Assembly: GCA_028710405.1 (NCBI GenBank)
Contig: JAQTUD010000004.1
Location: 1-34,173 of the forward strand
DNA: 34,173 bases
Direction of reading: 5' to 3'
Source: Candidatus Omnitrophota bacterium
Lineage (GTDB): Bacteria; Omnitrophota; Gorgyraeia; Gygaellales; Profunditerraquicolaceae
Part shown: positions 3,664 through 21,644 of the stretch, piece by piece
Numbering within the stretch: the stretch's first letter is position 1
Layout: every line of letters begins with the position of its first letter
The notes under the pieces: model-generated
Told to the model about the DNA's origin: nothing
Seen by the model: only the letters and a program-made list of their open reading frames with translations
The model's database searches: none
Position numbers and translations under genes: made by a program

Positions 3664-4950
3664 ATGAGAGTTCTAGTTATCGGAAGCGGAGGACGGGAGC
3701 ATGCGCTGGTATGGTCGATAGCGCAGTCAAGGATGGTGGATAAGATCTTCTGCGCGCCGGGCAACGGCGGGATCTCTAAACTTGCGGAGTGCGTGGATAT
3801 CAAGGCCGATGATATAAAGAGGATATTGGATTTCGCCAGGAAAGAAAGAATAGACCTGACGGTAGTCGGCCCGGAAGTGCCTTTATCTGCCGGAATTTCT
3901 GATGAATTCATCAATCATAAAATAAAAGTATTCGGCCCCGGGAAAAAAGCCGCGCGCCTGGAGGCAAGCAAGGTTTTTGCCAAGGAGTTGATGGCAAAAT
4001 ATAATATTCCTACCGCAGCTTTCAAGATTTTTGATAACGCCGATTCCGCCAAGAAACATATTGAGAAGAACGGCGCCCCTTGCGTGGTCAAGGCCGATGG
4101 CCTGGCCCAGGGCAAGGGGGTAATTGTGGCCAAGACTATTGATGAGGCCAAAGATGCGGTAGATGCCATGATGCAGAAGAAGGTCTTTGGCGAGGCAGGA
4201 AGTAAGGTGATTATTGAAGAATGTCTAGTGGGGCAGGAGGCATCAATTTTAGTGATCACCGATTCTAAAGAAGTCATACCTTTGGCCTCGGCGCAAGACC
4301 ACAAGCGCATTTTTGATAATGACCAGGGCCCTAATACCGGCGGGATGGGGGCTTATTCTCCGGCGCCGATAGTAACCCCGAAACTCTTAGAAGAAATTTT
4401 AGATAAAGTTATTTATCGTGCCATAGACGGTTTGAACAAAGAAGGAATAGTTTATCGTGGTGTTTTATATGCCGGTATTATGCTAACCAAAGATGGCCCG
4501 AAGACCCTGGAATTCAACGTGCGTTTCGGAGATCCGGAGACGCAGGCGATACTGCCGCGGATGCGTTCAGACTTATTGGAGACAATGCTTGCGGTAAGCG
4601 AAGATAAGCTTAGCAAGGTAGCGAAATTAGGTGGGCTTAGCTGGGATAGCAGGCCTTGCGTGTGCGTGGTCTGCGCTGCCGGAGGGTATCCCGGAGATTA
4701 CCAAAAGGGCCAAGAGATTTTTGGCCTGCAAGAATTAGAGAATAACAAGGAAGCAGTGGTATTCCACGCCGGCACAAAAAAATCCGACGGTAAATATTTT
4801 ACCAATGGAGGCAGGGTGCTGGGGGTTACCGGTTTAGGCAATAATATTAGAGAGGCGATTGATAAGACATATCAGGCGGTAGATAAAATTCATTTTGAAG
4901 GGATGCATTATCGCAAGGATATCGGCAGAAGGGCGATATCCGAGGATTAG
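3664..4950 (+). CDS. purD: Phosphoribosylamine--glycine ligase (GAR synthetase)
   Basis: MRVLVIGSGGREHALVWSIAQS N-terminus and ATP-grasp region. Full length 428 aa. Confidence 0.9.
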   Translation: MRVLVIGSGGREHALVWSIAQSRMVDKIFCAPGNGGISKLAECVDIKADDIKRILDFARKERIDLTVVGPEVPLSAGISDEFINHKIKVFGPGKKAARLEASKVFAKELMAKYNIPTAAFKIFDNADSAKKHIEKNGAPCVVKADGLAQGKGVIVAKTIDEAKDAVDAMMQKKVFGEAGSKVIIEECLVGQEASILVITDSKEVIPLASAQDHKRIFDNDQGPNTGGMGAYSPAPIVTPKLLEEILDKVIYRAIDGLNKEGIVYRGVLYAGIMLTKDGPKTLEFNVRFGDPETQAILPRMRSDLLETMLAVSEDKLSKVAKLGGLSWDSRPCVCVVCAAGGYPGDYQKGQEIFGLQELENNKEAVVFHAGTKKSDGKYFTNGGRVLGVTGLGNNIREAIDKTYQAVDKIHFEGMHYRKDIGRRAISED

Positions 4951-4959
4951 GGAGGGGTT

Positions 4960-5439
4960 ATGGCAAAGGCGATCAGTATTATTATGGGAAGTAATTCGGA
5001 TCTGGAGATAGTGCAGGAATCTATCAATGTGCTCAAGGATTTCGGAGTAAGTTTTGAGGCCAAAGTCCTCTCCGCGCACAGGACCCCTAAAGAATTAGCC
5101 CAATACGTGGAGGCAGCCCCCAAGAGGGGGGTAAAAGTTTTTATCGCCGCTGCCGGCGGCTCGGCCGCCCTGGCAGGAGTAGTGGCCGCGCATACTACTT
5201 TACCGGTTATCGGTATTCCTATTGAAACTAAGAGTCTAAAGGGACTGGATTCCTTATTGTCCACGGTGCAGATGCCCGCGGGAGTGCCGGTAGCGTCTAT
5301 GGCCATAGGCAAGGCTGGCGCCAAGAACGCGGCCCTATTTGCCTTAGCGATATTAGGGATCACGGAAAAAAAGATCAACCTGAAATTACTAAAGTATAGG
5401 AAAGAATCTGCGGCGAAGATAAAGAGAATCAGATTATAA
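4960..5439 (+). CDS. purE: N5-carboxyaminoimidazole ribonucleotide mutase
   Basis: IIMGSNSD...[28 protein letters not shown] matches the PurE signature. 159 aa. Confidence 0.9.
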
Positions 5440-5442
5440 AGA

Positions 5443-5521
5443 TAAAGACAGCGGAAACACTTTCCTGCATATTCGTTTTAGCATCCCACGGAAAGCGTTT
5501 CCTCTAAGCTGGTTACGGAAA
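5443..5521. promoter_or_regulatory. Two 13-bp palindromes GGAAA-N3-TTTCC plus a half-site, upstream of the tsaC operon (candidate operator)
   Basis: ggaaacactttcc (5443-5455), ggaaagcgtttcc (5480-5492), cggaaac half-site (5515-5521). The same palindrome recurs at 16692-16727. Confidence 0.4.
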
Positions 5522-5535
5522 CAATTGAGTTGGTT

Positions 5536-6597
5536 ATGAGTACGACAAAGATTATTAAGATTGATCCGCTAAGCCCTAATCCGGAGGTCCTCCGGCTGGC
5601 AGCCGAGATTTTAGTTAAAGGCGGGTTGGTGATCATCCCTACTGAAACTGTCTATGGGGTAGCGGCGAATATGCAGGATAAAAAGGCGCTGGAGAGATTG
5701 TATGGAATAAAGCAGCGGCCTAAAGATAAACCTTTTTCTTTGCTTATAGACTGGAAACTGCGAATTGAAGAGTTCGCCATAAATATACCGGTGGCGGCTT
5801 ATAAACTGGTGGATAAATTCTGGCCCGGGCCGTTGACAGTGATACTAAAATCAAAAGATGGAGGTAAGGTGGGGCTGCGTATGCCGGATAATGAGGTTGC
5901 CCGCGGGATCATTCATCTGGCTGGGGTCCCCCTGGTTTGTCCGTCGGCGAATATCTCCGGTAAACCCGCTCCAACAGATTTCCAGCAGGCTATTCAAGGG
6001 CTGGAGGGGTTAGTGGATCTGGCTATAGACGCCGGCAACCCCAGGATACAAGTGGAGTCCACGGTCATAGACCTGACTACTGAACCGGTGCAAGTCTTAA
6101 GGGAGGGGGCGATTAAAAAAGAAGAGGTTGAGGCAGTGATTAATAAGAAGGTCGTGCTTTTTGTCTGCACGGGAAACTCCTGCCGCTCAGTAATAGCGGA
6201 AGCTTTACTAAAGAAGAAACTAAAAGAAAAGAACAGGAACGATGTGGAAGTCTTATCCGCCGGCACAATGTTAACCGGCGGCATGGGCGCTACTGAATCC
6301 ACGAAAGAAGTCCTGGCCAGGGAGGGGATAGATGTCTCCGGGCATCTCTCCCGGTCTATCAACGCGGGGATGATCAAGAAATCTGACCTTATCCTAGTAA
6401 TGGAGAAGGCGCATGAGAATAGGGTCCTGGAGATCGCCCCGGAAGTAAAAAATAGACTTTTCTTATTAAAGGAATTTGCTAAAATAAATGGGAATAACCT
6501 TGATATCGCCGATCCTATCGGCAAGCCTCTGGAATCTTACAGCCGGACCCTTGAGGTGATCAAAGAAGCAGTAGAGAAAGTGAGTGTACTGATATGA
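5536..6597 (+). CDS. tsaC: Fusion protein: L-threonylcarbamoyladenylate synthase (TsaC/YrdC/Sua5 domain) + low-molecular-weight protein phosphatase (Tyr/Arg, CX5R)
   Basis: N-terminal about 200 aa LAAEILVKGGLVIIPTETVYGVAANMQD...LRMPDNEVARGII is the YrdC fold. C-terminal about 150 aa VVLFVCTGNSCRSVIAEALL (CX5R P-loop) with a ...DIADPIG Asp-Pro general-acid motif is LMW-PTP. Start is ATG 5536 (a TTG at 5530 is also possible). Confidence 0.8.
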   Translation: MSTTKIIKIDPLSPNPEVLRLAAEILVKGGLVIIPTETVYGVAANMQDKKALERLYGIKQRPKDKPFSLLIDWKLRIEEFAINIPVAAYKLVDKFWPGPLTVILKSKDGGKVGLRMPDNEVARGIIHLAGVPLVCPSANISGKPAPTDFQQAIQGLEGLVDLAIDAGNPRIQVESTVIDLTTEPVQVLREGAIKKEEVEAVINKKVVLFVCTGNSCRSVIAEALLKKKLKEKNRNDVEVLSAGTMLTGGMGATESTKEVLAREGIDVSGHLSRSINAGMIKKSDLILVMEKAHENRVLEIAPEVKNRLFLLKEFAKINGNNLDIADPIGKPLESYSRTLEVIKEAVEKVSVLI

Positions 6598-16777: not shown

Positions 16778-16947
16778 GTAAAAAGACACTTTGACAATTT
16801 GGTAAAAATGTCCTACTGAAAAAGGCAAACTAGCAGTAATGCTGGGGCGCAAAGCGACAGCCCCGACGTAAGTCGGGGGGCTGCGTTGCCAAAGAGGCTT
16901 GAAACCCTAAAGACTGCCTTTAGGGTTTATTTGTTTAGCCCTAAGTT
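16778..16947 (+). ncRNA. Candidate sRNA / structured leader of about 170 nt from promoter to first intrinsic terminator
   Basis: Transcript predicted from the promoter above. Contains an irregular hairpin of about 14 bp capped by GNRA tetraloop gtaa (16848-16891) and a 10-codon uORF (atg 16839..taa 16871). Ends at terminator 16913-16947. Confidence 0.35.
16913..16947 (+). terminator. Rho-independent terminator (11-bp stem + T-rich tail)
   Basis: aaaccctaaag-actgc-ctttagggttt followed by atttgttt. Confidence 0.6.
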
Positions 16948-17089: not shown

Positions 17090-17353
17090 ATGAAAGAGAA
17101 GATAAATACCCACAGAGTAGTGACTTTTCTGACCCGGGAAGAATTAGATTTTTTGGATAAGCTGGAGAAGGATATGATGTTCTCCACGGGCAGGCATATC
17201 TCCCGTTCCCAGATCATCCAGGATATGGCCGGCCTGCTCACTGAGACCCAGATGGATGCATCAGGCGTAAAGGATGATACAGAATTACGCAGCAGGATAA
17301 TGCAGGCTATCGCTAAATTAGTCAAGGAAGAACAAGACAAAAACAGGGGGTAG
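17090..17353 (+). CDS. Ribbon-helix-helix (CopG/Arc/MetJ-like) DNA-binding protein
   Basis: HRVVTFLTREELDFLDKLEKDM...GRHISRSQIIQDMAGLL fits a beta-strand / helix A / G-x-S N-cap / helix B RHH pattern. GGAGG RBS. Confidence 0.65.
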   Translation: MKEKINTHRVVTFLTREELDFLDKLEKDMMFSTGRHISRSQIIQDMAGLLTETQMDASGVKDDTELRSRIMQAIAKLVKEEQDKNRG

Positions 17354-17357
17354 GCTG

Positions 17358-17549
17358 ATGAAAACCTACACTGAAGAAGCCAGGTTAAAGACATTAGCGT
17401 CTAAGGGGGGAGTAATGTATTTTCTGGTAGAGAAACCGGACCGGATCTACCGCGGAATGGTCTTATTATCCCCGGCGCACAACCATAACCGCAAGAGGAT
17501 CGTCTGTATGAAGGTATATAAGATAAATGAAGAAGGGAGGGCTAAATGA
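17358..17549 (+). CDS. Hypothetical 63-aa protein, translationally coupled downstream of the RHH gene
   Basis: AGGGGGTAGG RBS. ORF MKTYTEEARLKTLASKGGVMYFLVEKPDRIYRGMVLLSPAHNHNRKRIVCMKVYKINEEGRAK. No recognisable domain. Its stop overlaps the next ATG (ATGA). Confidence 0.45.
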   Translation: MKTYTEEARLKTLASKGGVMYFLVEKPDRIYRGMVLLSPAHNHNRKRIVCMKVYKINEEGRAK

Positions 17550-17656
17550 GGCGTTTTTCCCGTAGATCACACAAGAAGGCCAGAAAGAATGATAAAAAAC
17601 ACACCGGGTTCCTTGAGGCGCTCAGGCTTTATGCCGGTATGCCGGTGGAAGTATAA
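17546..17656 (+). CDS. Basic His/Arg/Lys-rich micropeptide (36 aa), paralog 1
   Basis: MRRFSRRSHKKARKNDKKHTGFLEALRLYAGMPVEV. GGGAGGG RBS 8 nt upstream. ATGA coupling to the upstream ORF. Confidence 0.4.
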   Translation: MRRFSRRSHKKARKNDKKHTGFLEALRLYAGMPVEV

Positions 17657-17796: not shown

Positions 17797-17830
17797 AGGC
17801 CCGCTCTCGTTTGGGAGCGGGCCTTTTTAT
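17797..17830. terminator. Intrinsic terminator shared by the + strand micropeptide operon and the convergent helicase
   Basis: aggcccgctc-tcgtttgg-gagcgggcc followed by TTTTTATT on the + strand. The helicase stop codon lies inside the tail. Confidence 0.6.
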
Positions 17831-19707
17831 TATGCCTCGCGCAGCTGTTTCTCCGCGTCTATCACGTCGCGGTTAGTCACCCGGACAACCTCTTTTATTT
17901 TTTCTTTTAAGCCAGGCGAACATACCTTGGCATCCATGATCTCTCTTAAGATCTGTATCGCCATCCTGAAATAGCGCACTACTTCGCCCTCATCGGTATC
18001 AGTGAATTGTAATATCTTATCAAAGTTTGTCCCGCGCAGCCATCCTTCCATGCTTGAACTTAAATGAAAATACGGCTGTTTGCTAAAAGGATAAATCTTG
18101 TATTTCTGCTCCCGGTGTTTTATTAGTTCATATATCTCTTCGCAGGCATTTTTGACCTTATGGCCGGTCTTTGAGAGGCTGGTTACGCGTTGGTTCTTTC
18201 TGGGCTCAAAGACTGCCGCCGAGGCGATGATCCCTAAACCGAACTCATCTAATTGTTCCAGGATATTCTGGTCATAAAGTTCCGCCAGGATAAGCTCGTA
18301 ACCGTAGACATTCTTGGCGAATTGGCCTTTTTTGGTCAGGGCCCCTTTATCAATGTAACCCCATTCCTTAAGTAAATTTAATTTTGCCTCCATCAGCCTT
18401 AAGGCTTCTCTCTGGTGGTTTTTATGGGACTGGAAATAATGCAGCGATAGAGGATAGATTTTAAATAGCTCTTCTTTATGTTTTTCATAGAGGTTCAGGA
18501 TAGTAGCATAAGAAGTATTGAACTGGCTTCTGACCTGCTCGGCTCGGCCGTAAATAACGCGTTTTGCCTCGTCAAAATTTATGCGGTTTAAATTCAGGCG
18601 GCAGTAGACAAAACCTTCCTTGTCTATCCCCCGCCGTCCGGCGCGCCCGGCCATCTGGTAGAAATCCCGTGTTTTAAGATTACGCACATAGTGGCCGTAG
18701 AATTTGCGCAGTTCATCCAGGCATACCGAGCGGCTGGGCATATTTATCCCCAGGGCAAAGGTCTCGGTAGTGAATATGACTTTGAGCAGGCGGCTGGTAA
18801 ATAACCGTTCAATGACTTCTTTGAGGGTAGGAAGCATCCCGGCATGATGATAGGCAATACCCTGCTGTATGAGCGGATACATATTCTGCGCGCTGCGCTC
18901 GTGCTTTAAGTCAAAGCGTTCGCAGAGGGAGTTATACAGGTCGGTAATCTCGGCTCTTTCTTTGCCGTTAAGGAAATTAAAACTTTGTAATTCCTGGGCC
19001 AGGTCCTCGGCGCGCCTTCTCCCGAAGACAAAATAGATGCAAGGCAGGCCCTCCTTCTGGCGCAGGTAATTGATCAGCGTATTCATTTTATTCGGCCTGG
19101 CGAATTTGCCCCTTCTTACTTTGTCGATCTTGTCCACGATCTCATTTGAGCTCTGGAAGAAAAAGTGCAAGGGGACAGGGCGTTTCTCTTCAATTACCGT
19201 TTTTACCGGTTTATGGTGTATGGATTCTATCCAGGAGGCAAGTTCATTTATGTTGGGTATGGTTGCCGAGAGCGCCAGCAACTTCATATGTTTGGGAAGG
19301 AATATCAGGGATTCCTCCCAGACTGTCCCGCGCTCGGGATTGTCAATATAATGCACCTCGTCAAAGATGATCCAGGAGTACATCTGGAGGCTCTCCGGTT
19401 CATCCAGCACTTTATTACGGAAGATCTCGGTAGTCATGATCAATACTGGGGCCTGGGGGTTGATAGAGACATCCCCGGTCAATATACCGATGTTATCACC
19501 GAATTGCTGGTAGAAATCGCGGAATTTCTGGTTAGAGAGGGCTTTGATCGGGGCAGTGTAGATGACCCCCAGGTTATTCTGGATGGAGTTATTGATCACA
19601 TACTCGGCAATAGCGGTTTTTCCCGCTCCGGTGGGCGCCGAGACGATTACCGAACAGCCCTGGTTTATATAATCAATAGATTCCTCCTGGAAGCGGTCAT
19701 ATATCAT
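17830..19707 (-). CDS. SF2 DEVH-box helicase, Ski2/Hel308-like
   Basis: Motif I SAPTGAGKT, motif II DEVH, motif VI QMAGRAGRRG. 625 aa. Only minus-strand gene in the window. Confidence 0.8.
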   Translation of the reverse strand: MIYDRFQEESIDYINQGCSVIVSAPTGAGKTAIAEYVINNSIQNNLGVIYTAPIKALSNQKFRDFYQQFGDNIGILTGDVSINPQAPVLIMTTEIFRNKVLDEPESLQMYSWIIFDEVHYIDNPERGTVWEESLIFLPKHMKLLALSATIPNINELASWIESIHHKPVKTVIEEKRPVPLHFFFQSSNEIVDKIDKVRRGKFARPNKMNTLINYLRQKEGLPCIYFVFGRRRAEDLAQELQSFNFLNGKERAEITDLYNSLCERFDLKHERSAQNMYPLIQQGIAYHHAGMLPTLKEVIERLFTSRLLKVIFTTETFALGINMPSRSVCLDELRKFYGHYVRNLKTRDFYQMAGRAGRRGIDKEGFVYCRLNLNRINFDEAKRVIYGRAEQVRSQFNTSYATILNLYEKHKEELFKIYPLSLHYFQSHKNHQREALRLMEAKLNLLKEWGYIDKGALTKKGQFAKNVYGYELILAELYDQNILEQLDEFGLGIIASAAVFEPRKNQRVTSLSKTGHKVKNACEEIYELIKHREQKYKIYPFSKQPYFHLSSSMEGWLRGTNFDKILQFTDTDEGEVVRYFRMAIQILREIMDAKVCSPGLKEKIKEVVRVTNRDVIDAEKQLREA

Positions 19708-19762
19708 AGGGTTATTATATAGTTGATTTATCCAGAAATAAAGGGTAAAATAAAAGTAATCC

Positions 19763-19885
19763 CTCGCCTAAACACGGCAAAAATTTCATAAAACAATAAG
19801 CAAGAAACTTTTGCCGTAGGCTTCGGGATAAATTCGCACAAATAACTTATGTCGGCTTCGCCTCCATAAGTTATGTGCTCATTTA
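19763..19885. repeat. Copy 1 of a structured direct repeat of about 125-135 bp, abutting the thermonuclease start codon
   Basis: About 85% identical by eye to 20455-20592. Contains hairpins cggcaaaa.../...ttttgccg and gcacaaataacttatg-tcggcttcgcctc-cataagttatgtgc, and a cUUCGg motif. Confidence 0.6.
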
Positions 19886-20443
19886 ATGAAAAAGACTGTG
19901 TCATTGATGATATTGGCGTTATTAGCCAGCCTGCCTTTGATCGCCCAGGAGCTGCACGTAGATTATGATCCTAAGAAGGGCATAGTAAGCATTCCTTTCG
20001 GCCAGGCCCAGGCCCAGAAGGCTTATGTCCTGGTGAAAAGGGCGGTGGACGGGGATACCCTGTTGTTAGTGGATGGGCAGAGGGTGCGCTTAATCGGCAT
20101 AGACACTCCGGAGATGCACGAATCGGATAAACTTTACCGCGATGCCCAACGTACCAACCAGGACGTCAACACCATCAAAAAATTAGGCAGGCAGTCTTAC
20201 GAATTTACCAGGAGTATGGTGGAGGGCAAGCGGGTGAGCCTGGAATTTGACGTAGAAAGGCGCGATAAATACGAACGCCTGCTGGCTTATGTCTATCTTG
20301 AAGACGGCACCTTTGTAAACGCCGAGATCGTGAAGCAGGGGTACGCGTCTTTAATGACTATCCCGCCGAATAATAAATACGCGGATCTATTTTTGAAATT
20401 ATATCAGGAAGCGCGCGAAAATAAGCGCGGGTTGTGGAAGTAA
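19886..20443 (+). CDS. Secreted thermonuclease (staphylococcal nuclease/SNase-like)
   Basis: Signal peptide MKKTVSLMILALLASLPLIAQ. VDGDTLLLVDGQRVRLIGIDTPE...YERLLAYVY...NAEIVKQGYA SNase motifs. Confidence 0.8.
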   Translation: MKKTVSLMILALLASLPLIAQELHVDYDPKKGIVSIPFGQAQAQKAYVLVKRAVDGDTLLLVDGQRVRLIGIDTPEMHESDKLYRDAQRTNQDVNTIKKLGRQSYEFTRSMVEGKRVSLEFDVERRDKYERLLAYVYLEDGTFVNAEIVKQGYASLMTIPPNNKYADLFLKLYQEARENKRGLWK

Positions 20444-20454
20444 ATGAGGCTCTT

Positions 20455-20592
20455 CCCTTGCCTAAACGCGGCAAAAATTCCAGAAACAAGAGGAAAGGAA
20501 TTTTTACCGCAGGCTTCGGGATAAATTCGCAGACGGCCCTTACGGGCCTACAACTTATGTCGCTTCGCTCCATAAGTTGTCTGCTCATTTAA
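20455..20592. repeat. Copy 2 of the structured direct repeat, abutting the aroC RBS/start; carries an extra 14-nt hairpin insert
   Basis: Same element as 19763-19885, with the insert cggcccttacgggcc and compensatory stem changes (tttc/gaaa->ttcc/ggaa; ataactt/aagttat->acaactt/aagttgt). Confidence 0.6.
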
Positions 20593-20603
20593 GGAGGAGA
20601 TAA

Positions 20604-21644
20604 ATGTTGAGATGTCTGACCGCAGGGGAGTCGCATGGCAGGGGGATAATCGCCATTTTGGAAGGGATGCCCGCCGGGATAAAGATTGATGTAGCGGTAG
20701 TGGATCGGGAATTAAAACGCAGGCAGTCGGGATTTGGCCGGGGTAAGCGCATGCAGATAGAAAATGATTTGGCGCAGCTTGTCTCCGGTTTAAAAAACGG
20801 CCTGACCCTGGGGAGTCCGCTGACGCTACTTATTTTGAATAAAGATTTCAGCATAGAGAGGCTGCCTAAGGTGCTTAACCCGCGCCCGGGGCACGCGGAT
20901 CTGGCCGGCCTGTTAAAATACGGGTTCAGTGACGCCAGGAGTGTTTTGGAACGCGCCTCCGCCAGGAGCACGGTGGCAACCGTAGGGGTAGGGGCGGTCT
21001 GTAAGATTTTCTTAAATAATTTCGGCATCAAAATATCCAGCCGGGTCCTCTCTGTCGGGGGTGAGAATACCGCCGAGGGAATAAAAGAGAAGATCACGGA
21101 GGCGATACGTAATAAAGATACTGTGGGAGGGATTTTTGAAGTCATTGCCAGAGGCGCGCCTTGCGGGCTGGGTAGTTATGCCCAGGCAGACAGGCGTCTT
21201 GATGGCCGCCTTGCCCAGGCGTTAATGTCTATCCCCGGGATCAAGGCCGTAGAAATAGGCCTGGGTTCAGGATACGGGATAAGTTTTGGCTCAGAGGTCC
21301 ACGACGCGATCTATTATAAAAATGGCAAAGGATATTTTCGTAAGACCAATAATGCCGGCGGAATTGAGGGTGGGATATCTAATGGCCAGGATATTGTGCT
21401 GCGGGCCTGCATGAAACCTATTTCTACGTTATTGGATCCGCTGGATTCGGTGAATATAGCCAGTAAGAAACATGCCTTAGCCAGCACCGAGCGTTCGGAT
21501 ATCTGTGTAGTAGAGGCGGCAGGAGTAGTGGCAGAGTCAGCTTGCGCCTATATTTTGGCAGATGCTATCCTGGAGAAGTTCGGCGGGGATAACCTTTCGG
21601 ATATCAAGAACTCATATCAGGGCTATTTGAAAAGAATTAGATAA
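20604..21644 (+). CDS. aroC: Chorismate synthase
   Basis: MLRCLTAGESHGRG...GRGKRMQIE...RSDICVVEAAGVVAE signature. AAGGAGGAG RBS. Confidence 0.9.
   Translation: MLRCLTAGESHGRGIIAILEGMPAGIKIDVAVVDRELKRRQSGFGRGKRMQIENDLAQLVSGLKNGLTLGSPLTLLILNKDFSIERLPKVLNPRPGHADLAGLLKYGFSDARSVLERASARSTVATVGVGAVCKIFLNNFGIKISSRVLSVGGENTAEGIKEKITEAIRNKDTVGGIFEVIARGAPCGLGSYAQADRRLDGRLAQALMSIPGIKAVEIGLGSGYGISFGSEVHDAIYYKNGKGYFRKTNNAGGIEGGISNGQDIVLRACMKPISTLLDPLDSVNIASKKHALASTERSDICVVEAAGVVAESACAYILADAILEKFGGDNLSDIKNSYQGYLKRIR

Follow-up and report, generated by a model that had tools for sequence, protein, structure and literature searches.

The stretch of DNA analysed here (34,173 nt of contig JAQTUD010000004.1 from a Candidatus Omnitrophota bacterium, hereafter the window) carries an SNase-family nuclease gene flanked by two directly repeated structured elements, E1 and E2, the second of which precedes aroC. 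Both copies belong to a previously uncatalogued family of modular, structured interspersed repeats that extends across the phylum Omnitrophota. The reading favoured here from comparison of the sequences, at a probability of roughly 0.5, takes the element for an RNA leader that arose by co-option of an interspersed structured repeat, one of the BIME/BOX type. The bacteria of this phylum are uncultured and for the most part ultra-small, and to our knowledge nothing is known about how they control gene expression. An abundant, phylum-wide and structurally defined element that replaces Shine–Dalgarno (SD) leaders at core genes and flanks tRNA genes in reversed orientation therefore provides a handle on translation start, RNA processing or repeat spread, and the covariance model built for it can be used in the annotation of Omnitrophota genomes.

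A phylum-wide family with covarying helices

The element consists of two hairpins that abut one another without a linker. Module A, a hairpin of about 60-70 nt with the conserved base CCCUYGCCUAAAC…AGGCUUCGGGAU, comprises, in order, a 5-bp helix P1 (AUCCC/GGGAU), an internal loop formed by UY (5') and UUC (3'), a 4-bp helix P1b (GCCU/AGGC), a 4-nt bulge (AAAC, AAGC or AAUC) and, at the top, P2, a hairpin that varies. The bulged hairpin of module B is REP-like, with the consensus xAAUUCGC…AACUUAYG…CRUAAGUU…GCUCAUUx'A, in which the closing helix (xAAU/AUUx') is followed by an invariant UC/UC internal loop, helix P3a (GCNC/GNGC), either a 2-nt bulge or a side hairpin, and helix P3b, a semi-conserved stem (AYAACUUAYG/CRUAAGUURU) with a variable tip. 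Among copies module B is variously long, short or absent; of 147 loci, 53 contain its hairpin (AACTTAYG…CRTAAGTT), frequently more than once and in the absence of module A, and it appears to behave as an independent REP-like unit. Tandem arrays of the element occur at six loci (L009, L020, L037, L084, L101 and L132).

Two further observations concern this modular architecture. Lone hairpins of the module-B type are located in intergenic spacers of relatives devoid of module A (L141, 9335-9410 and 3852-3878; L145, 1879-1907 and 7093-7121), and one of those in L141 is perfectly symmetrical. A third module that recurs, AATTTTAGCATATCTTATGAGTCGGGATGAATTTGATAAT, is found about 50 nt upstream of module A at unrelated genes (L086, L066, L025, L043, L085, L035, L027, L001 and L011); it holds a -10-like GATAAT 6-7 nt before module A as well as a degenerate copy of the core, TCGGGATGAATT.

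The size of the family was assessed in two collections. The exact 19-mer core is present at 19 loci of a species-representative genome collection, of which 16, from 12 metagenome-assembled genomes (MAGs), are true element loci, and the other three are GC-rich chance matches; the MAGs concerned are labelled Omnitrophota, apart from some automated submissions labelled Planctomycetes. The two-part pattern was found in at least 120 stretches of a metagenome collection. With a covariance model of the first hairpin (module A) and nhmmer, 137 non-redundant module-A copies were gathered from about 0.79 Mb of fetched DNA (Omnitrophota MAGs and metagenomes), in which gene calls are based on open reading frames (ORFs). 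The search for further copies and their gene context that the preliminary description of the locus had proposed thus yields a large family, most members of which lie 5' of genes on the same strand. As both collection scans demanded the exact core, its invariance is overstated by them: among the copies found only through their flanks, 21 of about 29 deviate from the exact core and about 28% keep it.

No Rfam 15 family corresponds to the element on either strand, whether the whole window is searched at gathering score or the region 19650-20700 and the tRNA-linked copies at E ≤ 10. The sole match in the window at gathering score is a cyclic di-GMP (c-di-GMP-I) riboswitch (16814-16893), and those returned for 19650-20700 at E ≤ 10 are snoRNA and miRNA models of at most 20 bits, attributable to chance. 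Full-text literature searches retrieved no description of the element, and it is not mentioned in the main Omnitrophota genomics paper, where RNAs were annotated by Rfam only. In viral contigs a single GC-rich match of 25 bits was obtained and judged to be due to chance.

Covariation supports every helix, and the structure is real. In the 57 pattern-selected copies, for which P1 and P1b are fixed by the search pattern itself, 11 of the 12 pairs of P2 change on both sides, and none of 500 shuffles reaches the observed score. In a mixed alignment including copies not picked by the pattern, changes on both sides extend to 18 of the 21 module-A pairs (0/500 shuffles), and all slid controls collapse. 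Copies found through their flanks supply variants of the basal helices: AUCCC/GGGAU becomes ACCCC/GGGGU or ACUCC/GGAGU in P1, and GCCU/AGGC becomes GCGU/ACGC (six times), GUCU/AGAC or GCUU/AAGC in P1b. Among 51 parsed copies of module B, 24 have A-U as the closing pair x/x', 13 have U-A and 5 have C-G, and both P3a and P3b covary. The differences between E1 and E2 likewise keep the pairing (TTTC/GAAA versus TTCC/GGAA; ATAACTT/AAGTTAT versus ACAACTT/AAGTTGT), so that the compensatory changes first noticed in these two hairpins are confirmed and generalise to the family.

The SNase-aroC locus and its relatives

E1 and E2 lie around the SNase gene as two direct structured copies, and both end at gene starts, in agreement with what had been described (Table 1). 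The terminal CATTTA of E1 (19880-19885) is followed at 19886 by the SNase ATG, which indeed lacks an SD, and that of E2 (20586-20591) is followed by AGGAGG (20592-20597) and the aroC ATG at 20604. Both module-A copies are recovered by the covariance model (E1, 19758-19831, 64.1 bits, E = 6e-16; E2, 20452-20524, 61.3 bits, E = 3.6e-15); the fold agrees with the match in each case, and in E1 family covariation does so too. On the gene strand the two copies fold into two hairpins each, with z = -8.3 and -4.2 relative to shuffles. A 21-mer, AGGCTTCGGGATAAATTCGCA, and a 20-mer from the 5' part, GCCTAAACRCGGCAAAAATT, are common to E1 and E2, each occurring twice in the window versus 0.00 expected from shuffles. 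No third or degenerate copy is present in the 34-kb window, as searched with the unfiltered covariance model and with mismatches allowed.

Although the repeats are real, their identity, put at about 85% by eye, is 81% when measured as mean column identity of the pairwise alignment, with a 14-15-nt insertion in E2; module A alone is also 81% identical. The 14-nt hairpin insert is present in E2 as reported, but it is not peculiar to this copy: the same side-hairpin subtype of module B recurs, with covarying stems, in at least nine other copies (L020, L022, L025, L030, L032, L035, L053, L099 and L107).

Table 1. Features of the SNase-aroC region of the window, and the SNase 5' untranslated region (5'UTR) in relatives.
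Feature	Positions	Strand	Remarks
E1, whole copy	19759-19885	+	3' end flush with SNase ATG
E1 module A	19759-19829	+	P1 AUCCC/GGGAU, internal loop UC/UUC, P1b GCCU/AGGC, bulge AAAC, variable P2 hairpin with unusually long loop
E1 module B, simple subtype	19830-19885	+	Closing helix AAAU/AUUU, UC/UC internal loop, GCAC/GUGC, AA bulge, stem AUAACUUAUG/CAUAAGUUAU; flush with ATG
E2, whole copy	20453-20591	+	3' end at aroC SD
E2 module A	20453-20522	+	Begins 10 nt past SNase stop codon
E2 module B, side-hairpin subtype	20523-20591	+	GGCCC-UUAC-GGGCC (20535-20548) replaces 2-nt bulge; ends CATTTA just before SD
SNase promoter, sigma-70-like	19723-19751	+	Promoter scan; TTGATT 19723-19728, 17-nt spacer, TAAAAT 19746-19751
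SNase-family nuclease gene	19886-20443	+	N-terminal hydrophobic leader, without SD; Pfam PF00565, E = 1.8e-24
aroC (chorismate synthase)	20592-21644	+	Includes SD AGGAGG 20592-20597; ATG 20604; Pfam PF01264, E = 1.1e-100
Ski2-like DEAD/DSHCT helicase gene, divergent	17830-19707	-	Pfam
SNase 5'UTR behind promoter, window			Modules A and B, flush to ATG
SNase 5'UTR behind promoter, L011			Plain SD leader; complete opposite-orientation element abuts helicase ATG
SNase 5'UTR behind promoter, L141			Module-B-only hairpin and SD
SNase 5'UTR behind promoter, L145			ATG 6 nt after -10; predicted leaderless

The gene order helicase(-)-SNase-aroC-spoVG-aroK is kept in five relatives, namely L011 and four in which aroC is 77-79% identical, and SNase orthologues occupy the same position in L011, L141, L145 and L146. 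Given this conserved synteny, the SNase gene is not a mobilised cassette; the idea that it had been mobilised or duplicated together with the repeats is further contradicted by the conservation of its promoter in lineages without the element. The promoter (TTGATT-16/17-TAAAAT) is shared by the window, L011, L141 and L145, and the 5'UTR behind it varies from one to the next (Table 1); thus E1 occupies exactly the 5'UTR, from the predicted transcription start (about 19757-19760, the first base of E1). The SNase-aroC spacer is only 12-13 nt long in the relatives (13 nt in L141), and E2 is a lineage-specific insertion into the operon spacer.

It is very improbable that a promoter-leader was recently duplicated in tandem at this locus, capturing or carrying the SNase gene in the process. 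In its favour, the module-A copies of E1 and E2 are mutual nearest relatives among the 137 copies, and both possess the unusually long P2 loop. However, once module B is included E2 is nearer to L032 than to E1; the SNase gene lies between helicase and aroC in all five syntenic relatives; and the promoter, being outside the repeat, was not duplicated. Because the two copies are only 81% identical and their module-B subtypes differ, they do not represent a recent simple duplication: E1 and E2 are two members of the pool of elements in this genome.

The spacer between SNase and aroC shows further variation. In L146 (9900-10000) it is filled by another palindrome, of nested form (GGGACGGTTCTC…GAGAACCGTCCC, enclosing a GGGACAGTTCT hairpin), which may represent a second repeat family. 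In L145 a gene with an MshEN domain (c-di-GMP-binding) is inserted between the two genes (5070-5987).

Several known element types were considered for E1 and E2 and rejected. Of the two explanations originally offered, a structured repeat that supplies a leader is the closer, but its proposed nature as a miniature inverted-repeat transposable element (MITE) does not hold. No terminal inverted repeats are present, the inverted repeats found being the arms of internal hairpins, and the 5' end ATCCCTYGCC does not match the reverse complement of the 3' end, TAAATGAGC; nor is there a target-site duplication, as the flanks AAAAGTA and ATGAAAA (E1) and GAGGCTCT and AGGAGGAG (E2) contain no direct repeat. 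Intrinsic terminators are not detected on the gene strand between 19500 and 20800, and a single weak site lies on the minus strand in E1; the stems are followed by UCAUUUA or UUCGGG, with no U tract. An integron attC site, which has paired R''/R' core sites (RYYYAAC/GTTRRRY) 3' of promoterless cassettes, is likewise unsuitable: GCCUAAAC is a bulged strand without a paired GTTRRRY partner, and the neighbours are syntenic housekeeping genes. The small minus-strand ORFs at 19728-19904 and 20358-20588 share the peptide CEFIPKP only because they cross the conserved core, and the hairpins of variable length break the frame between copies. Finally, GGGATAAAT is not a credible -10 of a promoter inside the element, since a usable -35 at an appropriate distance is lacking and the covariation of xAAU with AUUx' speaks for pairing instead.

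Placement of the element and its possible role

Downstream of the element, the long ORF is on the same strand for 52 copies versus 9 on the opposite strand; where the genes form co-directional arrays, the corresponding figures are 23 and 2. The housekeeping genes that follow are unrelated to one another and include rplK, rpsJ, rplC, rplU, rpmA, groES, gyrA, phoU, pth, smc, leuA, pfk, rlmN, an hdrA-like gene, fabG and a helicase gene. The distance at which the start codon follows module B is bimodal, being either -1 to +1 nt, without an SD and always to an ATG (19 copies), or 8-14 nt including an SD (24 copies). Furthermore, the element is kept upstream of orthologues (of gyrA, phoU, the hdrA-like gene and others) whose proteins are 42-90% identical, with differences that preserve the structure. 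The family therefore combines long retention at some genes with local turnover elsewhere.

An RNA role is favoured because of the sense orientation before protein genes, the exact start-codon junctions, the substitution for SD leaders, the position of E1 at the start site and the retention at orthologues. According to this leader reading, the element would be transcribed on the gene strand and act in cis as RNA, with E1 and E2 each likely forming an entire untranslated leader, the former from the promoter start to the SNase ATG and the latter across the SNase-aroC spacer up to the aroC SD. A double hairpin at the 5' terminus, or between cistrons, would protect or stabilise the downstream message, and the closing helix, ending exactly at the point of ribosome entry, would set the mode of translation start. 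The copies themselves probably spread and turn over by duplication or recombination, as repeats of the BIME/BOX type do.

The leader envisaged here differs from the gene-specific regulator that had been proposed for the nuclease and aroC. The same element precedes many unrelated genes and, in the closest syntenic relatives, is absent at this locus. A riboswitch sensing a metabolite or a signal, or a gene-specific cis-regulator common to nuclease and aromatic amino-acid genes, would account for the conserved, junction-like core with variable stems and for the position directly 5' of the start codon, where the closing helix could mask the initiation region. Nevertheless, it is very improbable: the downstream genes have no common pathway (they serve translation, chaperones, replication, phosphate, amino-acid and energy metabolism, or encode tRNAs), the nearest relatives lack the element before both SNase and aroC, some copies are reversed or arrayed in tandem, no expression platform (terminator) was found, and Rfam returned no match. 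The riboswitch and the SNase-carrying local duplication are both essentially excluded.

Several observations weigh against the leader reading. The main difficulty is a strand paradox. GNA/GNRA loops and tandem G·A, which usually identify the strand that folds, are found not on the gene strand but on its complement, the strand transcribed in stable-RNA operons. Read on that complement, at least 67 of 118 P2 loops are C-GNA-G or C-GNAA-G (C-UNC-G or C-UUNC-G when read on the gene strand), the invariant internal loops correspond there to GA/GA and GAA/RA, and the opposite strand folds better in 126 of the 137 copies. At the lone P2 mismatch of E1 and E2, the gene strand has A·C where its complement has G·U. 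Per-copy folds contain 17-21 G·U on the gene strand versus 36-52 on the opposite one; such counts do not assign the strand, and for module B they give no signal (6 G·U versus 10 A·C). At tRNA genes, 13 of 14 adjacent copies are reversed, with the reverse complement as the sense strand. These reversed copies begin flush with the tRNA 3' end, CCA being followed directly by UAAAUGAGC…, for example by TAAATGAGC; nine of the tRNA-adjacent copies have the tRNA about 30 nt from the end of module A, and in the remainder this distance is 54-104 nt. Reversed orientation is also observed after tRNA-Ile and in the 16S-tRNA-Ile spacer. The reversed copies in tRNA and rRNA operons render a pure mRNA-leader model insufficient. 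In addition, module A is absent from the four relatives with 77-79% identical aroC (9-21 kb of each), so that the element is dispensable for SNase and aroC, and -10-like hexamers upstream of the copies are enriched only about 1.7-fold; promoter inference is weak for copies other than E1.

Compensatory change does not settle the matter either. It had been taken in the preliminary description as the signature of a functional RNA, but alone it is no proof of RNA function, because DNA palindromes can correct themselves by template switching; the perfectly symmetrised module B in L141, together with arm-templated correction, means that covariation alone does not establish that the RNA matters. As a more general warning, local repeats that differ by compensatory changes can be members of a dispersed family and not a gene-specific regulator.

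These points lend some weight to a selfish or DNA-level palindromic repeat, of the REP/BIME or miniature IS200/IS605 type, with single-stranded DNA hairpins forming on the strand opposite the genes, placement reflecting tolerated insertions and no role at the RNA level. Conserved module-B stems (AACTTAYG…CRTAAGTT) stand alone at many loci, including those of relatives without module A; tandem arrays are present at the six loci named above; position and orientation turn over between syntenic genomes; the C-G-closed GNA triloops and tandem G·A, very stable in DNA, are confined to one strand; and the symmetrised palindrome of L141 is what self-correction would yield. Nevertheless, such an origin of the whole pattern is rather unlikely. 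The 19 copies flush with an SD-less ATG would represent harmful insertions if the element neither supported nor tolerated initiation, copies are kept upstream of orthologues down to 42% protein identity, and the asymmetric bulges and loops are conserved rather than erased. The opposite orientation at protein genes and at tRNA/rRNA genes cannot be produced by a replication-strand rule. Moreover, no ORF resembling a Y1 transposase was detected in 0.94 Mb of fetched DNA, although this tblastn search, with an IS200 TnpA query, is a weak test (best E = 0.95).

Another rival reading is that the element serves as RNA punctuation or antisense RNA: the end of the module-B helix would be cut endonucleolytically in both orientations, giving leaderless mRNAs that begin with AUG as well as tRNA ends, and/or the abundant opposite-strand RNA from tRNA and rRNA operons would pair in trans with the leaders, coupling many genes to stable-RNA synthesis. 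This proposal draws on the flush junctions at start codons (19, all ATG), at tRNA 3' ends and, in one sense-oriented copy (L134), at the 5' end of tRNA-Ser. It is also consistent with the prediction that SNase is leaderless in L145, with the fact that the opposite strand, bearing the GNRA/GNA loops and tandem G·A, is the sense strand in stable-RNA operons, and with a core sequence conserved beyond the needs of pairing. It is, however, distinctly unlikely, as half of the copies retain an SD after the element and need not become leaderless, the exact core is kept in just about 28% of the copies not selected by pattern, and the flush junctions could merely reflect genome streamlining. At least as unlikely is its bidirectional form, in which the gene strand would be cut at the end of the closing helix to give leaderless mRNAs, and the other strand, made in bulk in tRNA and rRNA operons, would define tRNA 3' ends and release an RNA complementary to dozens of leaders. 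If the punctuation reading were true, dozens of leaders could be tied to stable-RNA synthesis.

Some features of the stable-RNA loci themselves may be noted. In L137 (611-1970) the 16S-tRNA-Ile spacer is unusually long (about 1360 nt) and holds a reversed copy at 1775-1835. In a tRNA-Pro/Arg/His cluster (L026, 1266-1755; L118, 29-435) a reversed copy follows each of the first two tRNAs, the second one in L026 being a weak match of 25 bits. A TATAAT is located 8 nt before tRNA-His in this cluster, and the arrangement suggests that each of its tRNAs forms a transcription unit of its own. L026 also contains a match to the nhaA-I riboswitch on the minus strand (166-221, 51.4 bits; gathering score 37).

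Comparison with known repeats and other features of the window

In its manner of working the element appears nearest to REP/BIME, BOX and Correia/ERIC repeats, yet it fails the defining features of each. REP/BIME repeats, known from Enterobacteria and Pseudomonas and associated with a cognate RAYT, a Y1 HUH transposase, are similarly high-copy, extragenic, imperfect palindromes with a conserved stem (here module B) that form mosaics and tandem arrays, persist for long periods with local turnover and are transcribed with their neighbours, as is presumably the case here. They lie, however, mainly 3' of genes or between convergent genes, whereas the present element is mostly directly 5' of start codons and possesses module A (about 60-70 nt), in which the base is asymmetric and conserved and the top covaries freely. 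Its sequence is unrelated, it belongs to another phylum, and no RAYT gene was found for it in 0.94 Mb by the weak tblastn test.

BOX elements (boxA-boxB-boxC) of Streptococcus pneumoniae are also modular structured repeats, about 100-200 nt long, that lie close to gene starts; their transcripts are predicted to form stable folds, and modules can be missing or multiplied. Sequence and host are unrelated to those of the element. We know of no report of BOX elements ending flush with start codons or tRNA ends. Correia (CREE) and ERIC repeats resemble it as interspersed structured repeats in 5' regions that can provide a leader or change an existing one and that influence how mRNAs are processed and how stable they are. 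Correia repeats are bounded by 26-bp terminal inverted repeats with TA duplications, whereas the element has no terminal inverted repeats or duplications; and where ERIC forms a single long imperfect palindrome, the element forms two separate hairpins. The 5'-terminal stabiliser hairpins, such as those of the ompA 5'UTR and the aprE leader, offer a further parallel, since E1 would place a closed helix at the predicted transcription start, with its 5' end base-paired; these are single-gene features, whereas the element is a dispersed family with a conserved core. Three of its traits are unusual: junctions with start codons are flush, copies at tRNA 3' ends are flush but reversed, and the asymmetric core is conserved across a phylum.

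Upstream of E1, the divergent helicase gene has a TATAAT (19708-19722, minus strand) 6 nt before its ATG, outside the element. This gene and SNase in L145, where the ATG lies 6 nt past TAAAAT (4480-4497), both appear to produce leaderless mRNAs, which suggests that leaderless initiation may be common in this lineage. Further upstream, the c-di-GMP-I riboswitch aptamer of the window (16814-16893, plus strand; 73.3 bits, gathering score 35) is full-length and lies about 200 nt upstream of three small ORFs (17090-17353, 17358-17549 and 17546-17656); a comparable trio of small genes was called at the same place in relatives (L141, 6646-7268).

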